This document shows, piece after piece, positions 765 through 24,505 of a stretch of DNA of 43,651 nt. Below the pieces are notes generated by a model. The model had not been told where the DNA came from, did no database searches, and worked only from the letters and a program-made list of their open reading frames with translations. The stretch's first letter is position 1; every line of letters begins with the position of its first letter. The position numbers were made by a program, and so were the translations under genes. This DNA is from an uncultured Dehalococcoidales bacterium. Its GTDB lineage: Bacteria > Chloroflexota > Dehalococcoidia > GIF9 > AB-539-J10. The stretch is taken from contig CAZWDC010000019.1 in the NCBI GenBank assembly GCA_964633085.1, positions 1 through 43,651 on the forward strand, in the 5' to 3' direction.

Positions 765-1967
765 TCATATTGGTCTCTCCTTAAGTGGCTTAAGAGTTAT
801 GCCTGACTCCGCCCCCGGCAAGGGAGCCACAGGCTCGGTAAGCAAAAACTCACCCCTTTCTATCCAGTTTTTCAAGATATTAGCAATTTCCACCGCTTTA
901 GGATAGCTAGACAAAGAAGCTGTAGGCACATCCTTTCCCTGAATCTTTATGTGACCGCTCTTCAATTCAGCATAGCTAACCTCTCCCAGAATATCTGGCT
1001 TCAGTTGGGGATAAGCATCGGAATAGTCCACCACAGGTGCCCAGATGTCAGCATCAGTTACTAAAGTGTAGCGCAGAATCTCCTCGGAAAGTATGGGTAT
1101 CGGGACACCTATACCCACGGTTAATGTGGCACCATAGCCCAGCATGCTTGTCCCCACCAACCACCCTGTCTTCATCTGCTTCAAATCTCCAATCACAGCC
1201 AGCGTCCCCGCCCCCCGCTTTGGCACACCGTTGTCTCCCCTGAGTGCACTGGGGTTATGCTGGGTGCCATGCCAGGCTACATAGCCTATGCCACCACCCA
1301 GGAAAATCTTCGTCCCCACACCTATGGTCTTATAATAGGGGTCGTTCAACAGCGGTGAGAGTTGCCCAGCACTACAATAGTTAGCATTTCCCAGACTCGG
1401 CTTGAGCACCCCCATATAAGTATAGATAACCTTATCGGAGAGGTTCACCGCCACATTGTAGTTCTGATAGGCATTCCTGATATTAAACAGAATAGCCTCA
1501 TTTATGTCCTTAATGTTGATGAGCGTCTCCAGCTTTTTCCGAGGATAGCAGTCTGTCCCGTAAGCCGTAGCCGTAAGCGTTATGTCGTTCCCCACTACTA
1601 GCTCCTCGATTTCATGCCCACCACCGTAATTGAACTCCCCGGGATAAAACTTATTCCTGGGGTCATCATCAGGAAGAGCAGTGGCTCCGAGGAAGATATC
1701 CACGGCAGCTATGCCAGTATAGACCGGAATATCATTAAGGTAAACTTTGCCGCCGCCCAACTTTATCCTGGGTTTGGTATGCCCAATATTAAGGAAAGCG
1801 CCAGACCCACACATGGGGCCGAAGGTGCCGGTGGTAACCACATCAATTTCTTCGGCTGCCCTCTTCACGCCTTTTTCCTTAGCGATGTCAATCACTTCCT
1901 CAGCAGTTACCACGACAGCTTTACCTTTTCTGATTTTCTCGTTGATTTCCGCTATTGTCTTGGCCAT
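765..1967 (-). CDS. DUF39 / COG1900 homocysteine biosynthesis protein (methanogen-type, sulfide-dependent route)
   Basis: The translation MAKTIAEINEKIRKGKAVVVTAEEVI...VVTTGTFGPMCGSGAFLNIGH is typical of the DUF39 family. The ORF track extends to 1994, but that start lies inside a REP-like element. I prefer the ATG at 1967 (MAKTIAEINEK). Confidence 0.85.
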   Translation of the reverse strand: MAKTIAEINEKIRKGKAVVVTAEEVIDIAKEKGVKRAAEEIDVVTTGTFGPMCGSGAFLNIGHTKPRIKLGGGKVYLNDIPVYTGIAAVDIFLGATALPDDDPRNKFYPGEFNYGGGHEIEELVVGNDITLTATAYGTDCYPRKKLETLINIKDINEAILFNIRNAYQNYNVAVNLSDKVIYTYMGVLKPSLGNANYCSAGQLSPLLNDPYYKTIGVGTKIFLGGGIGYVAWHGTQHNPSALRGDNGVPKRGAGTLAVIGDLKQMKTGWLVGTSMLGYGATLTVGIGVPIPILSEEILRYTLVTDADIWAPVVDYSDAYPQLKPDILGEVSYAELKSGHIKIQGKDVPTASLSSYPKAVEIANILKNWIERGEFLLTEPVAPLPGAESGITLKPLKERPI

Positions 1968-1989
1968 AACAATTTTCGCAATCATTCTT

Positions 1990-2070
1990 GTCATTCTGAG
2001 CGAAGGGAAGAATCCTTCGCCATGCTCAGGACGGCGTCTATAGACCCTTCACTATCGTTCAGGGTGACAG
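1990..2070. repeat. REP-like palindromic element (GTCATTCTGAGCGAAGG ... CCTTCGC ... GCTCAGGAC; TTCAGGGTGAC)
   Basis: Inverted repeats are 1996-2001 ctgagc with 2024-2029 gctcag, and 2000-2006 gcgaagg with 2014-2020 ccttcgc. A second module, gacccttcactatcgttcagggtgac, follows. Its translation artefact (VILSEGKNPSP) appears in ORF 1747..2043. Confidence 0.55.
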
Positions 2071-2095: not shown

Positions 2096-2875
2096 CTAGC
2101 CTTGCCTAAGTAATTCCTTGGCTATCCGGGCAGCCTTTTTACCGGATAAAAGCATGCCACCGAAAACAGCTCCCATCCTCGGCGAACCAAAAACCGTGTT
2201 GGCGGTCATGCCGGCAACTATTAACCCAGGATAAACTTCCCTGGTATTTTTCAATATTTCCTTTTCCCCTTTCTCAGCCCACATGGGCTTCTCCCCCATC
2301 ACCTCCCCCGTCTTTGTCCTTAACTTCGGACCTAACTTCTTCACCACGATACGACAGACTTCAGCATCGTGCCCGGTGGCATCTACAGCCACCCTGCACC
2401 TTATAGTTAGAGGGTCCACATGCAGGTTCGACCAAGAGACTGCGCTCCAATTCAAAACCAACCCGCTCACTCTCTCATCTTCCCGAACCATCACATCTTC
2501 CACGCTAATCAAATTGAAGACTTTTGCCCCAGTTTTTATCGCCTTCGAGCAAATAGTGGAAATAGCCTCCAGAGAATCGGCAACATAATACCCTTTCTTA
2601 TACTCCTCAGCTGATACGCCAAATTCGTCCAGTATCCGCTTGCCTTCTTCCTGAATAACAATGCGGTTAAACATCATCCCTCCTCCAGGCATGCCACCGC
2701 CAATACGAAGCATCTTCTCAAATACCACCACCTTTATTCCTTCTTTCGCCAGGTAGTAGGCAGTGACCAGCCCGGATGGCCCTGCCCCAGCTACTGCCAC
2801 ATCCACCTCCATCGCCCCCATGAACTCTTTCAAGTAGCTTTCCACAATGGCACGAGAAATAACAACTTCATCCAT
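2096..2875 (-). CDS. thi4: Thi4-family thiazole synthase (ADP-thiazole synthase)
   Basis: 259 aa. It has an FAD/NAD dinucleotide-binding motif ([11 protein letters not shown]), plus GGGMMFN and [10 protein letters not shown] motifs characteristic of Thi4/THI1. Confidence 0.85.
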
Positions 2876-4464: not shown

Positions 4465-5238
4465 CTAGACCTCCTTTGTCCCGCAGACTTCGCAATCCGG
4501 GTTTCTTACCAGTTTGCAGAATGTGAACTCCATCGTCTCACCGTTGAAATACAACATCCTCTCTGTTAGCAAAGACCCGAACCCGGCCAGAAGTTTAATC
4601 GCTTCTGTCACCTGTAAGATGGCAACCAAGGCCGGGGTTACGCCAAAAACAGGGACTGCGCTTCTCCTGTGGGGAACCTCGGGAAAAATGCACGCCAGAC
4701 AGGGGGTTTTCCCCGGGAGTATAGTAATGACCTCACCAAAGAGCCCGTGAACACCTCCATGGACGAAGGGTATTCCTTCGGCAACGCAAGCCTTATTAAG
4801 AATCAATCTGGTCCTGAAGTCGTCCATCCCGTCTATCACCAAATTTGCCCCCTTGATAAGCTCCCGAGCGTTATGTTCAGTAATCTTTTTGAAGACAGGT
4901 GTAACCTTTATTGAAGAATTTAGTTTAGCCAGCTTCCGTGTTGCCGAGAAGGGCTTCCCCTCTCCAATATCTTCCTCATAATGCAGAACCTGCCGGTTTA
5001 AGTTAGAGAGTTCCACACGGTCACAGTCTATCAAGGTGACATGGCCTATGCCAGCACACGTGAGATACAGAGCGGCAGAGCATCCTAATCCACCAAGCCC
5101 GGCTACCACTACATGGGCCTGCTTGAGTTTTTTCTGTCCTTCTTCACCAAAGCCGGTATACAAAATCTGGCGTCCGTATCTAATCAAATCGTCCTTCGTT
5201 AACATGTGCCTGCCTTTATCTTCCAACCCCGCAATCAC
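4465..5238 (-). CDS. ThiF/MoeB/HesA-family E1-like adenylyltransferase
   Basis: Motifs are RYGRQIL, the GLGGLGC nucleotide loop, and two CxxC pairs (CLAC, CEVC) for structural zinc. The GTG at 5238 is the longest start. The ATG at 5205 (MLTKDDLIRYGRQ) is an equally plausible start. Confidence 0.85.
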   Translation of the reverse strand: MIAGLEDKGRHMLTKDDLIRYGRQILYTGFGEEGQKKLKQAHVVVAGLGGLGCSAALYLTCAGIGHVTLIDCDRVELSNLNRQVLHYEEDIGEGKPFSATRKLAKLNSSIKVTPVFKKITEHNARELIKGANLVIDGMDDFRTRLILNKACVAEGIPFVHGGVHGLFGEVITILPGKTPCLACIFPEVPHRRSAVPVFGVTPALVAILQVTEAIKLLAGFGSLLTERMLYFNGETMEFTFCKLVRNPDCEVCGTKEV

Positions 5239-6703: not shown

Positions 6704-8209
6704 TTAAATGTTCCCCTCGGAAACTGGGAGAATAGAAAGGAAAAGAGCCGCGGGCATGATTAAGACATTTCCCCTCTCAGCTATTTCATCTCGGCTCAGT
6801 ATAATATAATCCTTAATGACAGGAATTTTCTTGACGTCTCTTTCGCTCACGCGCATCTGATATTTTACCTCTATTCCTTGGTACTGCCGATCCAGCCTCA
6901 TCACAGCATCAAGCTCCTTCGTCCTGTCGTAATATGTCCAGAGAAAAGTATTTCCCTTTTTAAGATAGGGTTTTTCTTTGTGAGTCAGGAGGTGAGACAT
7001 CACTATCCCTTCCACCAAGCTACTTTGAATCTCTTCGTTCTCTAAGGCTTCAGCGATGACATCCCATACCTCTTTGCCCATTAGATAGCTGCTCATCGAG
7101 TGGCGGACGAAGGGGTCAATGAAATAGATTTTCTTTTCCCCTTTAGATTTGATGTCCTTTGTGTTAAAGTCGTACGCATAGTGTATGGAAAGTATGAAGG
7201 AGTCCTCCATAAATTCCAGGTAGTCTATGGTGGCAACGTGGGTTCGTTCTATTTCTCCAGCGAGTTTGGAGAAACTATATCGCGTTCCGTATTTTTCCAC
7301 GATAGCTTTCAGGATATCCCGGGCGAGGGCCTCCTGTTTTTGAACTTTGGAGAGATCACCCAGAATGCTCCTCATAAAGACCTCAGCGAGTGACGAGTCA
7401 ATGTTCTCTCTGCCTGATTTATGACGATTTCTGAGGTAGTTATTGATGACCAAAGGTAACCCACCGGTAATAAGGTAAATCCTGAAGAGATACTGCAATT
7501 CACTGTGATAGGGCATGATTTCAAAGGCTTTCTTCCTCACTTCTTCGAGACCTAAATCAAGATCCAGCATTGTATTAAGAAGAACATCCCTAAGCCAAGA
7601 AAGTTTGTTCCGGAATTCCGGGGAAGGAGAGAAATCGCTGATAGAGCGGGCGGTCTGTAGGACAAATTCCCGGAAAGTTAAGGGCTTAAAGAAATACTCG
7701 TTGCCTTCAAGTCCTCTTCCCGGCAAAAGTTCCCCCTCCTTCTTGAGCCTAACAGCGCTTGAGCCCGTAGCTACGACAATAGCCTTCCGTGTAACCCCTT
7801 GATCTGCCAGATATTTAAGCTCAAGATTCCAGTCTTTGAGAAAAGTAATTTCGTCAAGGAAGATGTAGACTTCCTCTGCATCTACTGTCCTATTGAGAAA
7901 GAAATCTATGACATTGCGAAGTTCTCTCCTTGAAGTAAAAAAGTCAAGGGAGAGGTAAAGGATATGCTCAGATGTAACTCCTTTACTCAGGATGAGCTTC
8001 CTTACTGTATCCTTAAGATAGGTTGTCTTTCCAACCTGACGGCATCCCCGAAGGATATAGATGTTTCCTTTCTTGAACTCAAGAGCCTTCCTTTGGAAAA
8101 AGATTGGCTCCACTCCTTTAAAAAGGCGGGCAAAGATCCCGTCATAGTCAGCCAACACCGGTCTACGAACCCACCAAGGGTTCTGCTCCATTATTTCGGA
8201 TATCTTCAT
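6704..8209 (-). CDS. AAA+ ATPase with C-terminal DUF4143-like (PD-(D/E)xK-like) domain
   Basis: 501 aa. Walker A is GCRQVGKTT and Walker B is VYIFLDEITF. The C-terminal ELDAVMRL...GIEVKY resembles a D...ExK nuclease-fold motif. Sampled lines give a lower G+C (about 38-42%) than the flanks. Confidence 0.75.
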   Translation of the reverse strand: MKISEIMEQNPWWVRRPVLADYDGIFARLFKGVEPIFFQRKALEFKKGNIYILRGCRQVGKTTYLKDTVRKLILSKGVTSEHILYLSLDFFTSRRELRNVIDFFLNRTVDAEEVYIFLDEITFLKDWNLELKYLADQGVTRKAIVVATGSSAVRLKKEGELLPGRGLEGNEYFFKPLTFREFVLQTARSISDFSPSPEFRNKLSWLRDVLLNTMLDLDLGLEEVRKKAFEIMPYHSELQYLFRIYLITGGLPLVINNYLRNRHKSGRENIDSSLAEVFMRSILGDLSKVQKQEALARDILKAIVEKYGTRYSFSKLAGEIERTHVATIDYLEFMEDSFILSIHYAYDFNTKDIKSKGEKKIYFIDPFVRHSMSSYLMGKEVWDVIAEALENEEIQSSLVEGIVMSHLLTHKEKPYLKKGNTFLWTYYDRTKELDAVMRLDRQYQGIEVKYQMRVSERDVKKIPVIKDYIILSRDEIAERGNVLIMPAALFLSILPVSEGNI

Positions 8210-8462: not shown

Positions 8463-8864
8463 CTAGGTCCCTTTCTTCAGTTTCCGGTGTTCTAAGTAAT
8501 GCTCAATAGCCGATTTAAGCGCCTCCTCAGCCAGAACTGAGCAGTGCATCTTGACAGGCGGCAACCCGTCCAGAGCTTCGGCTACTGCCTTGTTGGAGAT
8601 TTTCAGAGCTTCTTCTATGCTTTTGCCTTTCACCATCTCCGTGACCATGGAGCTGGTGGCGATGGCTGCTCCACAGCCGAAGGTCTTGAACTTAGCGTCA
8701 ACAATGATACCATCCTTGACCTTAATGTAAAGCTCCATAATATCGCCGCACACCGGATTCCCGACCCGCCCCACACCGTCAGGGTTCTCCATCTCCCCGA
8801 CATTACGAGGATTCTTGAAGTGGTCCATCACCTTCTCGCTATATTGTGACCAGACGTCAGTCAT
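8463..8864 (-). CDS. nifU: NifU/IscU-type Fe-S cluster scaffold
   Basis: 133 aa. Motifs GNPVCGD, FKTFGCGAAIA and MHCS supply the three scaffold cysteines. Confidence 0.9.
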   Translation of the reverse strand: MTDVWSQYSEKVMDHFKNPRNVGEMENPDGVGRVGNPVCGDIMELYIKVKDGIIVDAKFKTFGCGAAIATSSMVTEMVKGKSIEEALKISNKAVAEALDGLPPVKMHCSVLAEEALKSAIEHYLEHRKLKKGT

Positions 8865-8869
8865 TTATT

Positions 8870-10042
8870 TCACTCCTGTCTTTGAGTTCTTAAGAGTGGA
8901 GACATGACCCTCAACCTAGCGACAATTCCTGGCAGAACCTCCAGCACTCGCTCTATATCGGCCTCAGCATTTTCTCGTCCCAGCGTAAACCTGAGCGAAC
9001 CATGAGCCTGCTCAGGGGGAACCCCCAGCGCCAGAAGGACATGGGATGGCTCCAGGCTTGCTGAGCTGCAGGCTGAGCCAGTGGAAGCACAGATACCTTC
9101 CAGATCAAGACTTAATAGCATGGACTCCCCTTCCACAAAATCCACACTGATATTGACATTGTTGGGCAGCCTTCTCCTAGGATGACCATTTAGTCGGATA
9201 CGGTCAATCTTCTCCCCGAGACCTTTAATTAGCTTATCCCGAAGATGAGCCAGCCGTTCTGCTTCCTTGCTCACCTCCTTACCGGCAAGCTCCACCGCCT
9301 TGCCTAACCCCACGATAGCCGGAACATTTTCCGTACCAGCGCGGCGACTCTTTTCCTGTTGCCCACCATGCATAAGGGAAACTAACCTAGTGCCCTTTCT
9401 GACATATATCGCCCCCACTCCTTTAGGTCCATAAAATTTGTGCCCTGAAATGGAGAGCAAGTCCACCTTGAGTTCATCCACATTCATTGGAATGTGCCCT
9501 ACTGTCTGCACAGCATCGCTGTGAAAATAGACCCCGGCTTCTCTGGCAATTTCACCTATTTCTTCTACAGGCTCTATCGTGCCCACCTCGTTGTTGGCAT
9601 GCATAACTGAGATGAGGATGGTTTTAGTGGTAATAGCTTTCTTAACATCCTGAGGGTCAACCAAGCCATGCCCGTCTACCGGGAGGTAAGTTATCTTGAA
9701 TCCCCTTTTCTCCAGGAACTTGCACGGCTCCAGCACGGCATGGTGCTCAATGGCGGTCGTGATGATGTGATTTCCCTTACGTTCATTAGCATATGCCACG
9801 CCCTTCAGGGCAAAATTATTCGCCTCGGTTCCTCCGCTGGTAAAAACAATCTCCTCACTCCGGGCGCCTATAAGTTTCGCTACTTTGGCTCTAGCTTCTT
9901 CTACAGCCCCCCTCGCTTCTTGCCCGTAAGAATGGATACTTGAAGGATTGCCAAAGGCCTCAGCAAAAAAAGGCAGCATGGCTTTCACCACCTCTGGATG
10001 AGTTAGTGTGGTAGACGCATGGTCCAGATATATCCTTCTCAT
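8870..10042 (-). CDS. nifS: Cysteine desulfurase (NifS/IscS class)
   Basis: 390 aa. It contains IYLDHASTT, the PLP lysine context SISGHKFYGPKG, and the active-site loop STGSACSS. Confidence 0.9.
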   Translation of the reverse strand: MRRIYLDHASTTLTHPEVVKAMLPFFAEAFGNPSSIHSYGQEARGAVEEARAKVAKLIGARSEEIVFTSGGTEANNFALKGVAYANERKGNHIITTAIEHHAVLEPCKFLEKRGFKITYLPVDGHGLVDPQDVKKAITTKTILISVMHANNEVGTIEPVEEIGEIAREAGVYFHSDAVQTVGHIPMNVDELKVDLLSISGHKFYGPKGVGAIYVRKGTRLVSLMHGGQQEKSRRAGTENVPAIVGLGKAVELAGKEVSKEAERLAHLRDKLIKGLGEKIDRIRLNGHPRRRLPNNVNISVDFVEGESMLLSLDLEGICASTGSACSSASLEPSHVLLALGVPPEQAHGSLRFTLGRENAEADIERVLEVLPGIVARLRVMSPLLRTQRQE

Positions 10043-10191
10043 CTAACCTTCTACTACCCCCAGCCCACTACAAAATTGCCCTGTCTCCACAAATCTAGAC
10101 AGAATTCTAACACTTAGGTATTTACCACTCAAATATCAAACTACACCTCTCTTACAATATAAGAATCCATAGAAGTGCCAGAGGCTTAAAA

Positions 10192-10219
10192 TCTCCCCTC
10201 TTCTTTTAAGAGGGGGAGA
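10192..10219 (-). terminator. Strong GC hairpin, terminator-like on the minus strand
   Basis: tctcccctctt / cttttt loop region / aagagggggaga form 11 bp with one bulge. On the minus strand the hairpin is followed by AUUUUAAG. It lies about 150 nt upstream of the nifS start, so it could be an insulator or an attenuator. Confidence 0.35.
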
Positions 10220-10331
10220 ATCTTCAAACGAGCTTACTTGTCACAGGCCAACCCAATAAGTTGCGCAATTCCCAGCACATTACTTGCAATATGGTAGATT
10301 AATCCCAACAACTTAGATTTAGTGCGGAGAT

Positions 10332-10430
10332 ATGTATAAGAAGAAAAGAATAGCGGCCTTAAAGCATCGGCGGCGGCAAAAGAAGCTCAAGGAAAAGATA
10401 AAAGCCCAGGCTCCGCCAAAGGAGAAATGA
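10332..10430 (+). CDS. Hypothetical 32-aa highly basic peptide, below the ORF-track size cut-off
   Basis: The ATG at 10332 gives MYKKKRIAALKHRRRQKKLKEKIKAQAPPKEK*. Its TGA overlaps the ATG of the downstream NTPase (ATGA at 10427-10430). GGAG precedes the start. There is no homology evidence. Confidence 0.3.
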   Translation: MYKKKRIAALKHRRRQKKLKEKIKAQAPPKEK

Positions 10431-10951
10431 AAAGAGCCCTCCTGTTGACCGGCAAGCCGGGCACAGGCAAAACTGCTCTCATCAAAGAAGCCCTGGCTAG
10501 GACCAAAGTCGAGGCAGGTGGCTTCTACACCGAAGAAATACGCACTGGGGGAATAAGGCAAGGGTTCAAGATTGTTACCCTTGATGGTCAAGAGGCGATA
10601 TTAGCTCATGTCAGCATCTCCAGCCCCTATCAGGTAAGCAAATACAAAGTAGATATCGACGCTTTGGATAGGGTTGGCGTCTCTGCTCTGCGTCAGGCGC
10701 TGAAAGAAAGCGACTTGATAGTTATTGATGAGATTGGCAAGATGGAGCTCCTGTCACCCCGCTTCAAAGAAGCTGCGATGCAAGCCATAAACAGTGGCAG
10801 GAAAGTCTTGGGCACCATAATGCTCAATCCCCATTCCTTTGCCGACCAGGTCAAATGCCATCCTGAAGTCGAAGTCTTCGTGGTAACCAGAGACAACCGC
10901 ACTCAGGTAATGAGGAAAGTCCTCAACTGGCTAATGGAAGAGGTGAACTGA
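10427..10951 (+). CDS. THEP1-family nucleoside-triphosphatase (COG1618)
   Basis: 174 aa. It has a P-loop (LLTGKPGTGKT), GGFYTEEIR...G, and Walker B LIVIDEIGKMEL. Confidence 0.8.
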   Translation: MKRALLLTGKPGTGKTALIKEALARTKVEAGGFYTEEIRTGGIRQGFKIVTLDGQEAILAHVSISSPYQVSKYKVDIDALDRVGVSALRQALKESDLIVIDEIGKMELLSPRFKEAAMQAINSGRKVLGTIMLNPHSFADQVKCHPEVEVFVVTRDNRTQVMRKVLNWLMEEVN

Positions 10952-11072: not shown

Positions 11073-12515
11073 CTATATATAAAACTTGAACTGTGGGAGC
11101 GGGTCTCTGTCCGCGGGGATTTCGCGCATAATATCGCCAACTAGCCTAGCAAACCTTACGGTAATGGGTAGAAGTCCACCTAAGCGAGCGGAGTTCCAGT
11201 TCATTTTTGTTAACATTAATATTTCACGTATCAATGTTTCTCGAGGAGTATCTTGGCCAACATGATCGGAGATAAGAAGTGGAGACGGAACGTGCATGCT
11301 ATGGAATTCGCCAAGATCTGAAATAAAGCCAGTTGTGTAGATATAATCTAACTCACCTACAGAGAATCTTGTACCACGAAGTGGTGGATATTTACTCTGT
11401 GTAATTAGTCTGACTTCACTCTGTGGCTGTAGGGCAAGCAAATCATATCGATTTACATGCTTACGCAATGCTCCTTTGAAACCTTGCCGCTCTGAAGGCC
11501 AATATTGGGAGGTCTTGTGCACCACAACCCGACTTGGCAACTGCTTCATTTCTTGCTTATAACGATCGAGCACTAATTCAATCAATTCATAAGCTTGCTC
11601 ATCATTTAAGTGCGGAGACCGACTCGCTTCTTTTTGAGGATCCCACTCAATGTCATGTCCGCGTAGAATGATCCCTTCGCCATGTTCATCAAATGCCTGA
11701 ACTAGACTAGTCTGCATATGTGAAAAGGTTGAGCCAAGTGGGCGATAAAAACTAATTCCAACGTAACATGTGCCTGGGGATAGTCCAGTAGGCCCCCAAG
11801 GAATACCACCTGCTTTAAAATATAGCCCTGTGAAAAAATTCCATGCGATCTTAGATGGATTATCCTTGTCTTTTCCTTCCATCGTTGGCTGTCTTAATAG
11901 TTGAGTCGGTATATGGTATTTCATAGCAACTGCTTTAAACGCACGACGAAGGTCACGATGTACTTCTCCAAGTCCTTTTTCAAAATAGCGGACTACTTTG
12001 CAGCGACGAAGTAGATCATCTGGCAATCCAACAACAATATAATGAGGAGGCTGGTCACGCTCGGACAATATCTTCAATTTCTGCTCCAGCAACCCTACAG
12101 CAGCTACAAATCTTTCACATGAGGAACGAATCTGAAGGACTTCTTCCATTTCAGACTGTGTTATTTGTTCAACCCAATCATCATCGAATTGTAAACTCGA
12201 AAAGAATCCCCTATCCTTTTGAAACCCGGGGAATTCAGGATGCTTTTCGTCACCTATTACTCCTTTGGCATTGTTTTGAAGCCAAACTCTAGATTTTTCA
12301 ATAGTATCCGCAGTCCCAATTAATCCTACCCTAACATTGTCAGGATGGCGTGCAAACCCGTGTGACCTAGGGCCATATCGGCTGATTCCAGACTTAGGAT
12401 CCACGTGTAATCCATCGTTACCGAAAATCAGAAGTGGCTCGGAGAAATATTCACAATTTATCACGGACTGACTAATCACTTCCCTCTTCCTTTGCGAGTT
12501 CTTCAATATCTTCAA
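11073..12515 (-). CDS. Short prokaryotic Argonaute (MID + PIWI only), predicted catalytically inactive
   Basis: At 480 aa it is too short to hold N/PAZ domains. MID-like pocket residues R190-K194...Q205...K234 (RRAFKAVAMKYHIPTQLL...YFKAGGIPW) have spacing like the Y/H/R-K-Q-K 5-prime-end pocket. PIWI strands read TCYVGISF (S255 where active Agos have the first Asp), VVVHKTS (T335 where RDG Asp is expected) and LPITVRFARLVG (R457 where His/Asp is expected). It overlaps the upstream gene by 44 nt. An alternative GTG at 12479 would give an 8-nt overlap. Confidence 0.85.
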   Translation of the reverse strand: MKILKNSQRKREVISQSVINCEYFSEPLLIFGNDGLHVDPKSGISRYGPRSHGFARHPDNVRVGLIGTADTIEKSRVWLQNNAKGVIGDEKHPEFPGFQKDRGFFSSLQFDDDWVEQITQSEMEEVLQIRSSCERFVAAVGLLEQKLKILSERDQPPHYIVVGLPDDLLRRCKVVRYFEKGLGEVHRDLRRAFKAVAMKYHIPTQLLRQPTMEGKDKDNPSKIAWNFFTGLYFKAGGIPWGPTGLSPGTCYVGISFYRPLGSTFSHMQTSLVQAFDEHGEGIILRGHDIEWDPQKEASRSPHLNDEQAYELIELVLDRYKQEMKQLPSRVVVHKTSQYWPSERQGFKGALRKHVNRYDLLALQPQSEVRLITQSKYPPLRGTRFSVGELDYIYTTGFISDLGEFHSMHVPSPLLISDHVGQDTPRETLIREILMLTKMNWNSARLGGLLPITVRFARLVGDIMREIPADRDPLPQFKFYI

Positions 12516-13791
12516 GACTGAGTTCTTCTTCTAAGTCCTCGTCTATAGCTGATTCTAGTTGTGAGAGTTCACCCCATGAAAAAAGGTCATCTATGTACCG
12601 TACATTCTTGAAAGGCTTGGCATATTCTTCAGGTATTCCAGGCCACGAGACAATACTACTAATTAGTGTTGTTGATATTATTAGTAACTGTTGAGGCCCA
12701 AATGAGAGATTTATACGAGGTCTCCCATCACTCAAATAGTCTCGCCAGAAATTTACCTCAACAAGAAGGTCATAGTTGAATCGATGTGATTTTTGTCTGG
12801 TCACGCGTGGCCCAATTCTACTCGGAGGAGGTGTGGAAAAGCCGTCCACTGTGACTCTAAGCTCTGGTCTTATGCTAAGGCACCATTCACTCGTACCTAT
12901 TTTAATAAACCTTAATGAAACAGCCCGATGATACCAATACCCTCTCGGTTCACCAGTTAGTCGTCTTCGGCGCTGCCAAACTACATTTCGAGTTGATTTT
13001 TTTTGGTTTAACGGGCGATATTGGATAGTTAGTCCTTGATTTGGTTGGGGAGGTTCGAAGTAATACCGATGATGTTCTTTATCTAACATTAAGCCACGAC
13101 GGCCCGTAAGCTTATTCAGTGTTCTATTTAAAAGTTGGACAAACCATCTCATCTTATCAGGATCATCCCACCATTCCTGACATTGAAATTGCTCCGCAGA
13201 TCTTCCAGGAACTAACTCTTCAAAAGGATTACCTGATGCATTCATGTTCTGGAATGCATAAAGCATACCTCCACGAATAATAAAAGGAGTTATTTCGTGG
13301 TTACGCCTTGGCCGGATGAGAGCTTGGACAGCCTTTTCAGCTGTGACATCACAAGGCACACCATAAATATATGGAGGCAATCGCTCCACACAAAGAAGCG
13401 TACTGTAAACGGTATCTTCAACATTTGGAGTAAGCAAGACAAGCTTTTCATCTTTTAACCCAAGGGCCTGCTCAACCCACTTCTCATGGGTTTGTTTCAT
13501 AGCACGAAGCTTTTCGACTGTATACGTCTGCGGCTGAAAGTCAACGAGTTGGTGATGTTGATTGCATAGTAAAATCAGATTATCATACTGATTGCGTTTA
13601 TCTTGAGGCAAAGGATAATTCCCACGTGGGCCATCAAATCTCTCGGCAACGATATGTGCGGCTTCACCTAACACGACTGGTCCATCTGGTGGGCTAGCTC
13701 CGGCGGTAAGAATGCGGCGACAGCCTTCGAATGCACAGCGATTACCTGATTTGGCAAATAATATTTTTTGTTCCTTTAGCGGAATAGCCAT
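12472..13791 (-). CDS. HNH nuclease fused to an APAZ-like domain; effector partner of the short pAgo
   Basis: 439 aa. Residues 15-84 form an HNH/zinc-finger nuclease: C19..C24 (NRCAFEGC), AAH46I, DN71LILLC76NQH79H80. The remaining 330 or so aa have no motif I can name. They occupy exactly the position and size of APAZ (N-L1-L2-like) domains of short-pAgo partner proteins. The C-tail is acidic (DEDLEEELSLEDIEELAKEEGSD). Confidence 0.8.
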   Translation of the reverse strand: MAIPLKEQKILFAKSGNRCAFEGCRRILTAGASPPDGPVVLGEAAHIVAERFDGPRGNYPLPQDKRNQYDNLILLCNQHHQLVDFQPQTYTVEKLRAMKQTHEKWVEQALGLKDEKLVLLTPNVEDTVYSTLLCVERLPPYIYGVPCDVTAEKAVQALIRPRRNHEITPFIIRGGMLYAFQNMNASGNPFEELVPGRSAEQFQCQEWWDDPDKMRWFVQLLNRTLNKLTGRRGLMLDKEHHRYYFEPPQPNQGLTIQYRPLNQKKSTRNVVWQRRRRLTGEPRGYWYHRAVSLRFIKIGTSEWCLSIRPELRVTVDGFSTPPPSRIGPRVTRQKSHRFNYDLLVEVNFWRDYLSDGRPRINLSFGPQQLLIISTTLISSIVSWPGIPEEYAKPFKNVRYIDDLFSWGELSQLESAIDEDLEEELSLEDIEELAKEEGSD

Positions 13792-13799
13792 TTAATATA

Positions 13800-13808
13800 A
13801 TTATAGCA
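13800..13808 (-). promoter_or_regulatory. Extended -10 promoter (TGCTATAAT) of the HNH-APAZ/pAgo operon; near-leaderless
   Basis: The minus strand reads gTGCTATAATtatattaaATG. The -10 hexamer ends 8 nt before the start codon and there is no Shine-Dalgarno. The -35 is weak. Confidence 0.45.
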
Positions 13809-13985
13809 CTATGGATGCACATTCCAGAACAAATGAGTTGGTGTTTCGGAGTAAACTGGCCATTCCGTTTTAGGTTCGGATGGTTGAGTCAGCAAGCTGA
13901 TTGTTGAAGGTGTAAACACAGCGTCGAGTAACAATCAGCCATATTGCTACTTGATATTCTCGCCTGCTTGGAAAGCAGTCGCTAT

Positions 13986-15014
13986 CTACCTCTGCGGCTC
14001 GATGATGACTTTGAGGGAATCCTGAGCTTGGGCGACAAGCTGGAACCCCAGGCCGGTTTCCACCAAGCCCAGCCGATGGGTAATCATCTCCCGCACACGT
14101 ATTTTGCCAGCCTGTATCAGTTCCAAGGCGGCGGCATAATCGGCCGGGCTGCCACCATAGGAACTGGTGAGCGTTATCTCGTTGCGCCAGAACAGGTCGT
14201 TCACCGATATGGGAACGCTGACGCCCGGCTCTGTGGGGGCGAAGAAGAGGACAGTGCCTCCCTGCTCCACCGACTCTAACGCCTGCTTTATGGCTGATAT
14301 TGCGCCAGTGCATATCACGACGAGGTCAGCTAGGCGACCATCGGCTACTTTGCGTAGGTAGGCTGGAGTATATTCGCTGGCATGAATGGCAATATCGGCT
14401 CCAAACTTTCGGGCTGCTTCGAGACGATAGTCAACGACGTCCGTGGCGACAACGCCACTGGCACCTGAAGCTCGAGCCAGTTGTATATGGAGCAGCCCAG
14501 CCACCCCGCAACCCATAACAAACACGGTCTGCCCTGCCTGTAGACGGGCTAGTTTTTGCCCGCGCAGTACACAAGCCAGCGGCTCGACAAAGGTCGCCTC
14601 CTCAAAGGATACTCCGTCAGGTAAGGGGAATATGCCCTGCTCGACATTGATGCGCGGCAACCGCACATATTCAGCAAAACCACCGGGGTCGAAGTTCGTG
14701 CGACGCAGGGTCTCACAGACGGTGTGGTGTCCACTCAGACAATAATGGCAGGTGTTGCAGGGAACATGATGGGCGGCGGCGATTCGGTCACCTACTTTAT
14801 ACTTCTTTACCCCCTTCCCAGCAGCCACAATCACACCAGCAATCTCGTGACCCAAGACTAAAGGGGCTTTGTGCCGGCGATACCACTCCAGCAAATCGGT
14901 GCCACAGATTCCGCTGGCCTCCACCTGTATCAGTACCTCGCCAGGGCCAATCTGCGGCACAGGCATCTCCTCCAGCCGCACATCCCGATTACTGTAATAC
15001 ATAGCTACGCGCAT
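13986..15014 (-). CDS. Zinc-dependent medium-chain alcohol/polyol dehydrogenase
   Basis: It contains GICGTDL, GHEIAG, the structural-zinc Cys cluster CNTCHYCLSGHHTVC, and the Rossmann motif VMGCGVAGL. The ATG at 15014 (MRVAMYY) follows AGGGGA. The track ORF starts at 15035. Sampled lines give a markedly high G+C (about 58-62%). Confidence 0.85.
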   Translation of the reverse strand: MRVAMYYSNRDVRLEEMPVPQIGPGEVLIQVEASGICGTDLLEWYRRHKAPLVLGHEIAGVIVAAGKGVKKYKVGDRIAAAHHVPCNTCHYCLSGHHTVCETLRRTNFDPGGFAEYVRLPRINVEQGIFPLPDGVSFEEATFVEPLACVLRGQKLARLQAGQTVFVMGCGVAGLLHIQLARASGASGVVATDVVDYRLEAARKFGADIAIHASEYTPAYLRKVADGRLADLVVICTGAISAIKQALESVEQGGTVLFFAPTEPGVSVPISVNDLFWRNEITLTSSYGGSPADYAAALELIQAGKIRVREMITHRLGLVETGLGFQLVAQAQDSLKVIIEPQR

Positions 15015-16132: not shown

Positions 16133-16140
16133 TTATTAAG

Positions 16141-16270
16141 AGAGCTTCTTGGTGACTCTAGCGGAGTGGAACCACCCGTTCCCATCCCGAACACGGAAGT
16201 GAAACGCTCCAGCGCAGACGATACTTGAGGGGGGACCCTCTGGGAAAATATGCCGTTGCCAAGAAGCTCT
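16141..16270 (+). rRNA. rrf: 5S ribosomal RNA (stand-alone; no 23S/16S nearby)
   Basis: It contains the universal 5S core ...CCACCCGTTCCCATCCCGAACACGGAAGTGAAACGCTCCAGCGC.GA.GATACTTG.... The ends agagcttcttggtgac and gttgccaagaagctct pair as helix I. The mature ends may be a few nt inside these limits. Confidence 0.9.
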
Positions 16271-16400
16271 AATTCTATTGAATTCAACTACCAAAATCTC
16301 GTGATTCCCGTGGAAATATGTGAATCCGAAATTCGAACCTATCGGGGCTCCAAAAAGTAGAAGATTTTGGTGGGTTGATTTAGGATAATGTAGGAGGGGG

Positions 16401-17459
16401 GTGGTACATGCTATGCTAGAAAAGCAACGGGATTCACGACCACCTTGGGGTTGGAGACAGATCGCCCGCTTTGTTAGAACTATCTTAGCAAGTCGGGCCG
16501 ACAGGCGGGGCCCGTTTCTGCTCTCCCATCTGATCACAGGACGGTGCAATTGCCAGTGCCCGACGTGTCTTTGGCGTAATAATGAAGCAGACGAACTTGA
16601 AACAAGCGCGATCGAACGGCTCTATCGGGGCGCGAAGGATGCGGGATTTTTAGTAAATGCGATATGGGGTGGGGAGCCTCTCCTACGCCAAGACCTTGGC
16701 CAACTCTGTCGTTCTTCCCGTGAAAACGGAATGATGACGACGGTGATCACCAATGGATTTCTTCTACCAGACAGAGCACATGAAATCGGCAAAGAAGTCC
16801 ACTGTATTATAGTCTCCCTGGATTATCCGGAGAGCAAGGCTCATGATTCATTCAGGGGCATGCCGGGTCTTTTTGCTAAAGCTATCGAGGGCATAGAGGT
16901 CTTGAAGAGGATGAACTCGCCTAAGAAAATTATAATCAATTGTCTCCTCCACCGAGGGAATGAGAACATGATAGGGCAAATAGCAGACCTGGCCCGCTCT
17001 CTGGGCGTATCGCTTTGGGTCTGCCCGGCAAAGGAAGGGATTTCCAGAGAAACCGGGGAGACGAACAAGGAGGCTCTGGCATCGCGAGAGTCAGAGCAGC
17101 AAGCAGCCAGGGAGTTGCTTGACTTAAAAAAGAGAGGCTATCCAATAAATAATTCCCGAACTTATCTGCAGAGATACCTGCTGAATATGACGCCTTACGT
17201 TTGCCGTGTCCCTTTTGTTTTTATAACCGTGACTCCAGAAGGCAACGTAACGAACTGTTTCAACCATGACAGACCCTATGGAAATGTGAGAGCCTCCCCA
17301 TTCGATGAGATAATGAAAAACTGGGACCGTCGTGAGGCGGCAAACATCACAAAGGGGTGCTGGAAATGCAATAACCCGGATGTAGTCGATACATCATACG
17401 TCTGGGAGTTGAGACTAGAACCTTCATGGAATTTACTCAAAACCTTCCTGCCTAAATGA
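16401..17459 (+). CDS. Radical SAM enzyme with Cys-rich C-terminal (SPASM/twitch-like) region, unknown substrate
   Basis: It has the CxxxCxxC motif CNCQCPTC, GGEPLL, and C-terminal cysteines (CRVP...NCFNH...GCWKCNNPD). The start is ambiguous: GTG at 16401 lies right after AGGAGG, or ATG at 16413. Confidence 0.75.
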   Translation: MVHAMLEKQRDSRPPWGWRQIARFVRTILASRADRRGPFLLSHLITGRCNCQCPTCLWRNNEADELETSAIERLYRGAKDAGFLVNAIWGGEPLLRQDLGQLCRSSRENGMMTTVITNGFLLPDRAHEIGKEVHCIIVSLDYPESKAHDSFRGMPGLFAKAIEGIEVLKRMNSPKKIIINCLLHRGNENMIGQIADLARSLGVSLWVCPAKEGISRETGETNKEALASRESEQQAARELLDLKKRGYPINNSRTYLQRYLLNMTPYVCRVPFVFITVTPEGNVTNCFNHDRPYGNVRASPFDEIMKNWDRREAANITKGCWKCNNPDVVDTSYVWELRLEPSWNLLKTFLPK

Positions 17460-22677: not shown

Positions 22678-22944
22678 ATGGCAACCGAGAAGTTCACTGT
22701 AGATGGAAGTGACGTAGTTGAGAAAATCAAGGAGCTGGTGCACCACGGAAATATCAGAAGGGTTCGCTTGATACACAAGGGACGCCCTCTGATAGACATC
22801 CCTCTGACAGTAGGTGTCGGTGTAGCGACGGTAACAGCCCTCGCAGCTCCAGTGCTGGCTGCGCTGGGAGCAATTGCTGCACTGGTCACAGAATGCACCA
22901 TCGAGGTGGAGAAAGTGGAAGACGCACCAGAAAAGAAGCAGTAG
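22678..22944 (+). CDS. DUF4342-like small protein
   Basis: The ATG at 22678 lies 9 nt after TAAGGAGG. The translation is MATEKFTVDGSDVVEKIKELVHHGNIRRVRLIHKGRPLIDIPLTVGV.... The track ORF from 22555 overlaps cinA and is over-extended. Confidence 0.65.
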   Translation: MATEKFTVDGSDVVEKIKELVHHGNIRRVRLIHKGRPLIDIPLTVGVGVATVTALAAPVLAALGAIAALVTECTIEVEKVEDAPEKKQ

Positions 22945-22987
22945 AAGGCTAGCTACCTTCACGGTATTTGAGGTATACTCTGCACCT

Positions 22988-24505
22988 ATGGCAACCTTCG
23001 ATACGGGTGAAATAAAGTCCAGAGCAAAGGCCAACTTTACTGATGCCTGGGTAGCTACGGGCAAGCTTATCCCCACTGGCACGGAAATCGTTCTCACGAA
23101 GAAAGGCACACCTCACCTTGTTCGGGAATTAATTCAGAAATCCCGCCGGATTCTATTAGACCTCGGTTTCGATGAGGTCGAGAACCTTACTATATTGCCC
23201 GATACTGATGTAGTCAAACAGTATGGGCCGGAAGCTCGAGTGATTCTCGACAGAGCTTTCTACTTAGCCGAACTGCCTCGCCCCGACATCGGTCTGAGCG
23301 CCAAAAGAATAGCCGAGATAAAGAAAATAGCTGAGGAAATCGACATCGAAAAGCTTCAGACAATTTTGAGAAACTACAAAAAAGGGGAAATCGAGGCCGA
23401 TAATCTCATCGAAGAGCTCATCGCCGGACTGAGCATCACGGATTACCAAGCTACGGAGCTCCTCGATAAAGTTTTCCCCGAATTGAAAGAACTAAAGCCC
23501 CTGCCCTCCAACAAGACCTTAAGAAGCCATATGACGGCTACTTGGTTTCATACATTAGCAGCATTGCAGTCCCGATGCAATCGGGACAGCTTCCCGGTCG
23601 CTCTATTCTCTGTGGGTCCCAGGTATCGCAACGAGCAAAGAGAAGATGCTCGGCATTTGCGAGTCCACCACTCAGCCTCTATCGTGGTCATGGATTCTGA
23701 AATGTCTTTAGATGCGGGTAGGGCGATTACCAAGAATATCATGCAGCAATATGGTTTTTCCGACATCAAATTTGAGACCAAGATAGCAACGTCCAAATAT
23801 TATGCGCCGGGACAAGAGCAGGAGGTCTTCGTCAAACATAAAGGAAACTGGCTCGAGATAGCGGACATTGGAATGTATTCGCCGGTAGCGCTAGCGAATT
23901 TCGACATTAAATACCCAGTATTCAACGCCGGCTTTGGCATTGAGCGGCTGGGAATGCTTATCTATGAAGTAGACGATATCAGGAAGCTAGCCTACCCACA
24001 ATTTACCATCGTTGAGTATTCGGATGAAGAGATAGCCGAATCCATCACCTATATCGCCAGCCCTCAGACTGCTCGAGGGCAAGAAATAGCCAAAGCGATC
24101 GAGGAAACAGCCCGCAAATACAAAGACGAGATTGCTCCCTGCGAATTCTTGGCCTGGAAAGACGAATCTATTGAGGTGAAGGTTGTAGAAACGGAAGCTG
24201 GCAAGAGACTAATTGGCCCGGCTGGTTTCAACGAAATCTGTGTCGCCAATGGGACTATCTATAGCGATGTTGTGCCCTCAGGAGTATATACGGGGATAAA
24301 CTACATGCGTGCTATTGCCATGGGTGCCGCCGCAGCAATAGAAAGCAGCAACTATAACTTAATTTATCAGGTGAAGGGAGTAAGACATCTTTCTGACCTT
24401 AATCTCCAGATTCCCGAGGCTGTACGACAGCATATTGAAGGGCAGCAGAAGAAAATAGGAGTCGGTGGGGCAGTATTCGTGACTATAGATGTGAAGAAAC
24501 TCTAA
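22988..24505 (+). CDS. sepS: O-phosphoseryl-tRNA(Cys) synthetase (SepRS)
   Basis: About 505 aa from the ATG at 22988. There are long collinear matches to archaeal SepRS as I recall it: ...YKKGEIEADNLIEEL..., VFPELKELKP...TLRSHMT, PRYRNEQREDARHL, SKYYAPGQEQEVF, and FGIERLGMLIYEVDDIRKLAYPQF. Confidence 0.85.
   Translation: MATFDTGEIKSRAKANFTDAWVATGKLIPTGTEIVLTKKGTPHLVRELIQKSRRILLDLGFDEVENLTILPDTDVVKQYGPEARVILDRAFYLAELPRPDIGLSAKRIAEIKKIAEEIDIEKLQTILRNYKKGEIEADNLIEELIAGLSITDYQATELLDKVFPELKELKPLPSNKTLRSHMTATWFHTLAALQSRCNRDSFPVALFSVGPRYRNEQREDARHLRVHHSASIVVMDSEMSLDAGRAITKNIMQQYGFSDIKFETKIATSKYYAPGQEQEVFVKHKGNWLEIADIGMYSPVALANFDIKYPVFNAGFGIERLGMLIYEVDDIRKLAYPQFTIVEYSDEEIAESITYIASPQTARGQEIAKAIEETARKYKDEIAPCEFLAWKDESIEVKVVETEAGKRLIGPAGFNEICVANGTIYSDVVPSGVYTGINYMRAIAMGAAAAIESSNYNLIYQVKGVRHLSDLNLQIPEAVRQHIEGQQKKIGVGGAVFVTIDVKKL

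Follow-up and report, generated by a model that had tools for sequence, protein, structure and literature searches.

A probable SPARHA-type short Argonaute operon in the genome of an uncultured Dehalococcoidales bacterium

What do two overlapping genes on the minus strand of contig CAZWDC010000019.1, from the metagenome-assembled genome (MAG) of an uncultured Dehalococcoidales bacterium (GCA_964633085.1), encode, and does the pair belong to a defence system that is already known? The stretch of DNA that we analysed, referred to here as the window, comprises 43,651 nucleotides of this contig. A first-pass annotation made from its sequence had read the two genes as an operon in which an HNH nuclease fused to an APAZ domain is paired with a catalytically dead short prokaryotic Argonaute (pAgo). 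We conclude with high confidence that the gene pair encodes a functional system of the SPARHA type (short prokaryotic Argonaute, HNH-associated), in short-pAgo clade S2B; no feature of the sequence speaks against this reading.

SPARHA was reported as a bioRxiv preprint in April 2025, and the paper in Nature Communications followed in November of that year (Kanevskaya et al., Nat Commun 2025; PMC12738770). That work covers biochemistry, plasmid and phage assays in vivo, guide sequencing, mapping of cleavage sites and cryo-electron microscopy (cryo-EM), and it describes RNA-guided complexes that form filaments when triggered by target DNA, resulting in Mn2+-dependent collateral cleavage of double-stranded DNA and abortive infection (PMC12738770). 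The three characterised systems, MllaSPARHA, AcaSPARHA and LheSPARHA, differ from one another in 5'-nucleotide preference and toxicity, and RNA guides and DNA targets are common to all characterised short-pAgo systems (PMC12738770). The view taken in the first-pass annotation, that the HNH-APAZ type is mechanistically little characterised, is consequently outdated; since 2025 the type has been named, characterised biochemically, supported by defence data in vivo and resolved in a cryo-EM structure. The system type is already known, named and solved, and the pair in the window is an ordinary added ortholog. The same annotation had expected target-activated collateral DNA cutting, an activity that has been shown experimentally for SPARHA (PMC12738770) and that would, by analogy, be the activity of the pair described here.

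The two proteins of the operon

The product of the upstream gene aligns over its full length with the HNH endonuclease of AcaSPARHA (PDB 9OM4_A) at E = 1e-114 and 44.3% identity, with 49% identity in the HNH part and 43% in the APAZ part. The 9OM4 entry is the cryo-EM filament of the Acidithiobacillus caldus SPARHA (PMC12738770). The protein belongs to a family of 956 homologs at E <= 1e-5, the consensus of which likewise begins MAIP. Its nearest homolog in a collection of 5.8 billion proteins is 88% identical, and the exact protein is therefore absent from that collection.

The N-terminal part of the protein is a Cap5-like HNH domain. Pfam HNH_2 matches it at 6.1e-5, which is over the cut-off of that model, and PADLOC models of the SAVED-HNH/Cap5 type from cyclic oligonucleotide-based antiphage signalling systems (CBASS) match residues ~3-116 at 1e-28 to 5e-37 (SAVED_HNH 1.5e-27). 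Cap5 entries in the PDB (7rwk, 8ysq and 7rwm) also match the domain, with E = 1.8e-10 to 1.9e-7. All eight of the residues C19, C24, E43, H46, N71, C76, H79 and H80 are identical in AcaSPARHA, with unchanged numbering, and in that system an N71A/H80A mutant abolishes activity (PMC12738770). The bridge residue E43 sits three residues before H46, and its counterpart in the Mlla protein is E50, three residues before H53, corresponding to an offset of 7 residues. With an equal offset of 7 residues, Q8 and K9 correspond to Q15 and K16 of the Mlla dimerisation helix. An AlphaFold model of the whole protein, built from 110 homologs and with a mean predicted local distance difference test (pLDDT) of 87, places Q8 and K9 in a helix spanning residues 5-15, and it also contains a strand at residues 43-46, a helix at residues 77-85 and the pair of histidines on a beta-strand and an alpha-helix.

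Similarity to Cap5 does not extend past the nuclease. A CBASS Cap5 effector was considered and ruled out, as the Cap5 similarity is confined to residues ~3-116 and the rest of the protein is APAZ and not SAVED. Residues 108-379 match the PADLOC models Aga_REase-PNTD1-PNTD2 (3.1e-35) and Aga_SIR2-PNTD1-PNTD2 (2.9e-33), with the best of these matches spanning residues 108-361. When the APAZ part of the AlphaFold model was compared with known structures by Foldseek, the best match was 9om4_A (E = 1.1e-27, TM 0.92, root-mean-square deviation 2.1 A), with APAZ chains of SPARDA and SPARTA systems as the runners-up. The sequence of the protein also matches the DREN-APAZ chains 9qbp and 9qbl. Therefore, the proposal of an HNH-APAZ fusion, for which the first-pass annotation could name no motif beyond the nuclease, holds by profile, sequence and predicted fold.

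The protein ends in an acidic tail, as had been pointed out from the sequence, with 14 aspartate or glutamate residues among its last 30. At least 10 such residues are found in the last 30 of all full-length homologs (113/113), compared with a background of 12%, and the tail has low pLDDT in the model. In SPARTA, a homologous acidic APAZ tail lies in the nucleic-acid cleft and acts as an autoinhibitor; conservation of this tail in clades S2A and S2B has been reported (PMC10899771). By analogy with SPARTA, the tail of the HNH-APAZ protein is most likely an autoinhibitor that occupies the cleft. We also considered the tail as an undescribed feature and rejected this, given that its conservation in S2A/S2B APAZ domains and its autoinhibitory action in SPARTA are published (PMC10899771).

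The product of the downstream gene aligns end to end with the partner chain 9OM4_B, annotated as a MID-PIWI family protein of 471 aa, at E = 2.4e-160 and 53.6% identity, and the PADLOC model pAgo_I matches it at 1.5e-146, with model positions 2-455 of 455 covered. At 468-480 aa, with MID and PIWI and with no N or PAZ domain, it is a short pAgo. In the PDB search it scored 537 bits against SPARHA, 192-218 against SPARDA, ~135-150 against SPARTA, 73 against 8in8_C (a further short Piwi-domain protein) and 31 against a long pAgo. This ranking of bit scores serves, in place of a tree, as a proxy for clade placement.

In order to examine the active site, a profile of 16 members of the pAgo family was aligned by hhalign with TtAgo, which is encoded on plasmid pTT27 and in whose translation the catalytic residues D478, E512, D546 and D660 were confirmed. 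The alignment has a probability of 94.7% and covers only TtAgo residues 418-646. In it, the residue facing D478 is S255 (480-aa numbering, as for all pAgo residues given here) and that facing D546 is T335. The glutamate finger E512 pairs with P301, within the sensor-loop region, in a stretch where the alignment is of low confidence, and the position of D660 is occupied by R457 or a gap in a C-terminal local alignment. Serine, threonine and arginine are found at these catalytic positions in 14-15 of the 16 family members. Since S255, T335 and R457 occupy the catalytic positions, the PIWI domain is, as judged from its sequence, catalytically inactive. The pocket residues R190, K194, Q205 and K234 pair in the same alignment with TtAgo R418, K422, Q433 and K457, which we take to be the residues of the 5'-phosphate pocket, and they are invariant in all family members (16/16). 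The MID pocket for the 5' end therefore appears intact. A long, catalytically active pAgo is ruled out, as the N/PAZ region is missing and the catalytic positions are substituted. The residues named in the first-pass annotation for both proteins are all in the positions that it gave, with the codon at 11751-11753 reading AGT (S255) and that at 11511-11513 reading ACC (T335), and its claims of a MID-PIWI-only Argonaute, a lost DEDX tetrad and a retained 5'-end pocket are sustained; no intact tetrad emerged on alignment.

The two genes are kept together across the family. The pAgo gene lies directly downstream of the HNH-APAZ gene in every one of 19 related loci, comprising 18 genome loci and the closest NCBI contig (GCA_034430855.1, locus L019), and their stop and start codons overlap or abut in most of them.

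The assignment rests on the two-gene architecture, the retention of the named catalytic and structural residues, the loss of the PIWI tetrad, the conserved operon, purifying selection and the placement of the genes in an accessory cassette. Several points qualify it. The Pfam Piwi model scores 14.7 bits on the pAgo, compared with a gathering threshold of 28.9, and NCBIfam has no match for either protein, both of which we judge to be limits of the libraries rather than counter-evidence. The characterised systems are only moderately similar, at 44-54% identity, so that the preferred 5' nucleotide of the guide, the preferred metal and the temperature optimum may differ. A consensus scan for promoters and terminators returned nothing above the shuffled expectation, although a -10-like element upstream of the operon (Table 1) went unreported because no -35 hexamer scores at least 4/6. 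Finally, SPARHA function is attributed to this ortholog by homology with characterised systems. With regard to the Piwi domain, Pfam alone would wrongly fail the pAgo, but the PADLOC and PDB searches settle the matter in its favour. Automated screens should take note that Pfam misses this protein at its curated threshold and that NCBIfam is without a model for either member of the pair.

Relation to characterised systems and proposed mode of action

The closest relatives among characterised systems are AcaSPARHA, MllaSPARHA and LheSPARHA. All share with the pair in the window the order of the two genes (439 + 468 aa here, 435 + 471 aa in Aca), a Cap5-like HNH domain, an APAZ domain with an acidic tail, and a MID-PIWI partner with an inactive PIWI domain, an intact MID pocket and, by alignment, a sensor-loop region. 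In AcaSPARHA, the catalytic, zinc and bridge residues of the HNH domain are as in the window. The two systems differ in overall sequence, and from the 44% and 54% identity we would place the system in the window on a different branch of the clade. They differ also in sensor loop SL1, where residues 290-296 of the Aca protein map to residues 296-303 in the window with a one-residue insertion and several substitutions; the SPHL core of this region is invariant in the family. Besides SL1, connector and interface loops drive the assembly of SPARHA filaments, and residues of these two loops have been mutated in MllaSPARHA. The characterised SPARHA hosts are a proteobacterium, a myxobacterium and a cyanobacterium, whereas the host here is represented by a Chloroflexota/Dehalococcoidia MAG.

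More distant are SPARDA systems, which pair a DREN/DUF4365-APAZ protein with a short pAgo (9qbp, 9qbl, 9qcc, 9jsb). Their pAgo is of the S2B type like that in the window, their APAZ domain has the same fold (Foldseek E about 1e-14) and carries an acidic tail, and activation of a collateral DNase through filaments is common to SPARDA and SPARHA. However, the SPARDA effector is a PD-(D/E)xK nuclease of the DREN type and not HNH, and its pAgo is only about 30-35% identical to that in the window. SPARTA systems (TIR-APAZ with a short pAgo; 8qlo, 8fex) likewise form an APAZ/MID-PIWI heterodimer that senses DNA by means of RNA guides, is activated by oligomerisation and has an autoinhibitory acidic C-terminal tail, but their effector is a TIR NADase that depletes NAD+, they assemble into tetramers rather than filaments, and they belong to clade S2A. 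Cap5, the SAVED-HNH effector of CBASS (7rwk, 7rwm, 8ysq), has an HNH domain homologous to residues 3-116 of the effector described here and is activated by HNH tetramerisation; it differs in sensing cyclic nucleotides through SAVED, in place of APAZ and a pAgo, and in using no nucleic-acid guide.

Complex formation, the type of guide and target, filaments, collateral cleavage and defence are transferred here by homology from AcaSPARHA and MllaSPARHA. On that model, the HNH-APAZ protein and the pAgo would form a 1:1 heterodimer, in which the inactive MID-PIWI protein would load short guide RNAs, anchored by their 5' end and derived from invader transcripts. In the resting complex, the N-terminal helix of the HNH domain would be held on MID, with the acidic APAZ tail probably in the nucleic-acid cleft. 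Once the guide had paired over more than 10 bp with complementary DNA of the invader, sensor loop SL1 of PIWI (~296-303) would be displaced, and this displacement would remodel the adjacent beta-sheet and extend a connector loop, driving pAgo-pAgo polymerisation into filaments. HNH domains released from MID would then dimerise through their N-terminal helices and go on to form tetramers with double active sites, which would cut double-stranded DNA indiscriminately and in a Mn2+-dependent manner. Destruction of cellular as well as invader DNA would amount to abortive infection.

It is conceivable that the pair has SPARHA architecture and yet acts differently, for example with DNA guides or RNA targets, through small oligomers, or with another substrate or metal specificity, in a manner suited to a slow-growing anaerobic Dehalococcoidia host. 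The limited identity to AcaSPARHA, the altered SL1 and the variation already seen among the three characterised systems all speak for such divergence. Nevertheless, every residue of known mechanistic role that was compared with AcaSPARHA is kept, the MID pocket does not vary within the family, and no characterised short-pAgo system departs from RNA guides and DNA targets. We therefore regard divergent action as very unlikely and favour the canonical SPARHA mechanism. The divergent sequence could be of use for comparative biochemistry or for tools of DNA detection.

Expression, selection and the genomic site

The open reading frame (ORF) list agrees with the first-pass annotation on two overlapping minus-strand genes of 439 and 480 aa, with an overlap of 44 nt if the pAgo starts at the TTG codon, or of 8 nt if it starts at GTG 12479 (residue V13). 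Most likely, on the strength of sequence comparison, the true start is the GTG, giving a protein of 468 aa. In L019, the gene call for the ortholog gives 468 aa and an identical 8-nt overlap, the alignment with AcaAgo starts no earlier than residue 17, and the purine-rich stretch GGAAGAGGGA directly precedes the GTG. The two genes are probably co-transcribed and translationally coupled, the coupling being suggested by the overlap.

Upstream of the HNH-APAZ gene, the element TGcTATAAT lies so close to the ATG, at a distance of 8 nt and with no Shine-Dalgarno sequence in between, that a leaderless or near-leaderless mRNA is suggested. This region is not common to L019, with which similarity ends 7 nt upstream of the ATG. 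A 147-aa ORF at 13870-14313 was rejected as spurious; it overlaps the neighbouring ADH gene in a different frame.

Selection was assessed against the L019 copy, which is 84% identical to that in the window. The ratio of nonsynonymous to synonymous substitution rates (dN/dS) is 0.11 for the HNH-APAZ gene and 0.05 for the pAgo gene, indicating strong purifying selection on both. DNA similarity to L019 is confined to exactly 11074-13798; on both sides of this interval, the DNA is unrelated. The GC content of the cassette is 0.43, compared with about 0.46-0.57 in the flanks.

Relatives of the host indicate what the chromosome looks like without the cassette. RpoB from the window is 97% identical to that of a MAG labelled 'Chloroflexi bacterium' and about 91% identical to those of Dehalococcoidia MAGs, which assigns the host to an uncultured lineage of Chloroflexota/Dehalococcoidia. 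Metagenomic loci syntenic for the ADH gene (L021-L100, ~85% amino-acid identity) share a run consisting of a SepRS-like gene, an ABC transporter, a radical SAM gene, 5S, an aldolase gene and the ADH gene. Synteny ends exactly past the ADH stop codon at 13986, and SPARHA is found in 0/80 of these loci. One of them (L056) represents an empty site, with the ADH gene followed by a 46-nt gap and then an NTPase gene, and in another (L029) genes for an N6_N4 DNA methylase, a SIR2_2 protein and a GmrSD_N protein lie 1.8-5.3 kb downstream of the ADH gene. The cassette is thus a compact accessory unit of 2.7 kb at a strain-variable chromosomal site, and it illustrates the transfer of the gene pair, with little else, into such a site. 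A DUF3800 protein is encoded at the variable site past the ADH gene in a further locus (L023).

Such a setting raises the question of whether the cassette is a silent or decaying horizontal acquisition that no longer functions in its present host. The insert is low in GC, neither a -35 element nor a terminator is recognisable, its site is empty of SPARHA in relatives, and at one related locus (L005) the pAgo gene is interrupted by a stop codon. Set against this, both ORFs are full length and free of frameshifts and stops, the catalytic residues are intact, the dN/dS values of both genes indicate continued purifying selection, and a TGnTATAAT element is correctly positioned upstream. We accordingly give the decay of this copy very little credence and retain the reading of a functional SPARHA operon. 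The L005 gene belongs to Candidatus Contendobacter (9316-10713), and its in-frame stop may mark a pseudogene or have arisen through an error of assembly.

The surroundings of the L019 copy are different. A gene for a 100-aa HNH_4 protein precedes that operon and a tyrosine integrase gene follows it (9529-9831 and 12743-13717 of L019), with Prim-Pol/PriCT_1 a few kilobases away, and the operon there apparently belongs to an integrated mobile element. One could therefore suppose that the cassette serves mainly in competition between mobile elements or in addiction, travelling with an integrative element and killing cells that acquire rival plasmids. The DNA common to the window and L019 is exactly the two genes, and the strongest response of the characterised SPARHAs is to plasmid ori transcripts. 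However, no integrase or transposase is found among the neighbours of the cassette in the window, a tRNA scan of the 43.6-kb window returned none, and the direct and inverted repeats in the flanks are only short and at chance level. Collections of mobile DNA did not furnish full-length homologs either: the phage collection contained none, nor any pAgo match, and PLSDB plasmids yielded only matches to the HNH module, as part of different fusion proteins, together with pAgos resembling those of SPARDA at <=35% identity. A scan of genome contigs likewise returned no close relative of the cassette, the best being a partial match at 58%. As the molecular mechanism would be identical either way, this role, which we consider exceedingly improbable as the main one, leaves the identification as a SPARHA defence system unaffected.

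Four of the plasmid matches (H1-H4, for example NZ_CP016820.1 55437-55766) carry a SPARHA-type HNH module corresponding to residues 1-110, at 46-55% identity and without APAZ. These plasmids are from Rhodococcus, Pseudoalteromonas and Rhizobium, which fits the published fusion of this HNH clade to many sensor domains.

The first-pass annotation also held the host lineage to be unusual. SPARHA loci occur in Chloroflexi, Cyanobacteria, Planctomycetota, Actinomycetota, Acidobacteriota and Gammaproteobacteria, and because they extend to a second Chloroflexi MAG and to at least five further phyla, the host is not exceptional. A clean, intact and strongly constrained ortholog from an uncultured Chloroflexota/Dehalococcoidia genome does, nonetheless, widen the documented host range of the clade. 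We can only speculate, and think it rather unlikely, that the site past the ADH gene is an integrase-independent hotspot for defence cassettes in this Dehalococcoidia lineage, and that a SPARHA expressed from a leaderless transcript in a slow-growing anaerobe might also differ from the characterised mesophilic systems in its source of guides or its activation threshold; the type of system would be unaffected by either.

Feature coordinates and neighbouring genes

The features of the operon are collected in Table 1.

Table 1. Features of the SPARHA-type operon, in coordinates of the window. Residue numbers of the pAgo follow the 480-aa reading frame.
Feature	Position	Strand	Details
HNH-APAZ effector gene	12472..13791	minus	ATG-start ORF, 439 aa plus stop
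HNH (His-Me finger, Cap5-like) nuclease domain	13462..13791	minus	residues 1-110
Parts of the HNH domain			N-terminal helix 5-15; zinc ligands C19/C24/C76/H79; bridge E43; catalytic H46/N71/H80
APAZ domain (PNTD1-PNTD2; N-L1-L2-like)	12592..13461	minus	residues about 111-400
Acidic C-terminal tail of HNH-APAZ	12472..12591	minus	residues about 401-439; overlaps pAgo start
Short pAgo gene (MID-PIWI)	11073..12479	minus	468 aa from GTG; mechanical ORF from TTG at 12515 = 480 aa
N-terminal region and MID domain	11796..12479 (approximate boundary)	minus	predicted 5'-end pocket R190/K194/Q205/K234
PIWI domain, predicted inactive	11076..11795 (approximate boundary)	minus	S255, T335 and R457 replace catalytic Asp; SL1 ~296-303
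Purine-rich Shine-Dalgarno-like stretch GGAAGAGGGA	12481..12490	minus	within 3' end of HNH-APAZ gene, directly upstream of pAgo GTG; sequence reading
Extended -10-like element TGcTATAAT	13800..13808	minus	8 nt upstream of HNH-APAZ ATG; sequence reading

Beyond the operon, a lone 5S rRNA gene is located at 16148-16264 (+), between the radical-SAM and aldolase genes, and was detected with 99.9 bits; elsewhere in the 43.6-kb window there is no 23S, 16S or tRNA gene. Four relatives (L023, L030, L036 and L040) have the orphan 5S gene in the same place. A 137-aa ORF at 16136-16549 (-) overlaps the 5S rRNA gene and was dismissed as spurious.

The window also encodes a 543-aa protein resembling class II aminoacyl-tRNA synthetases, with a tRNA-synt_2d core, consistent with the earlier suggestion of SepRS. 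It is accompanied by genes for HcyBio (homocysteine biosynthesis, sulfur incorporation), Thi4, a ThiF-family protein and NifS/NifU; the synthetase-like gene and this set are located at 22874-24505 (+), 765-1994 (-), 2096-2875 (-), 4465-5238 (-) and 8463-10042 (-). The sulfur-metabolism genes agree with what the first-pass annotation had remarked of the host, namely an archaeal type of cysteine and sulfur metabolism. Past the NifS/NifU pair, about 3 kb from the SPARHA cassette, a gene at 6704-8209 (-) encodes a 501-aa ATPase with AAA_14 and DUF4143 domains.

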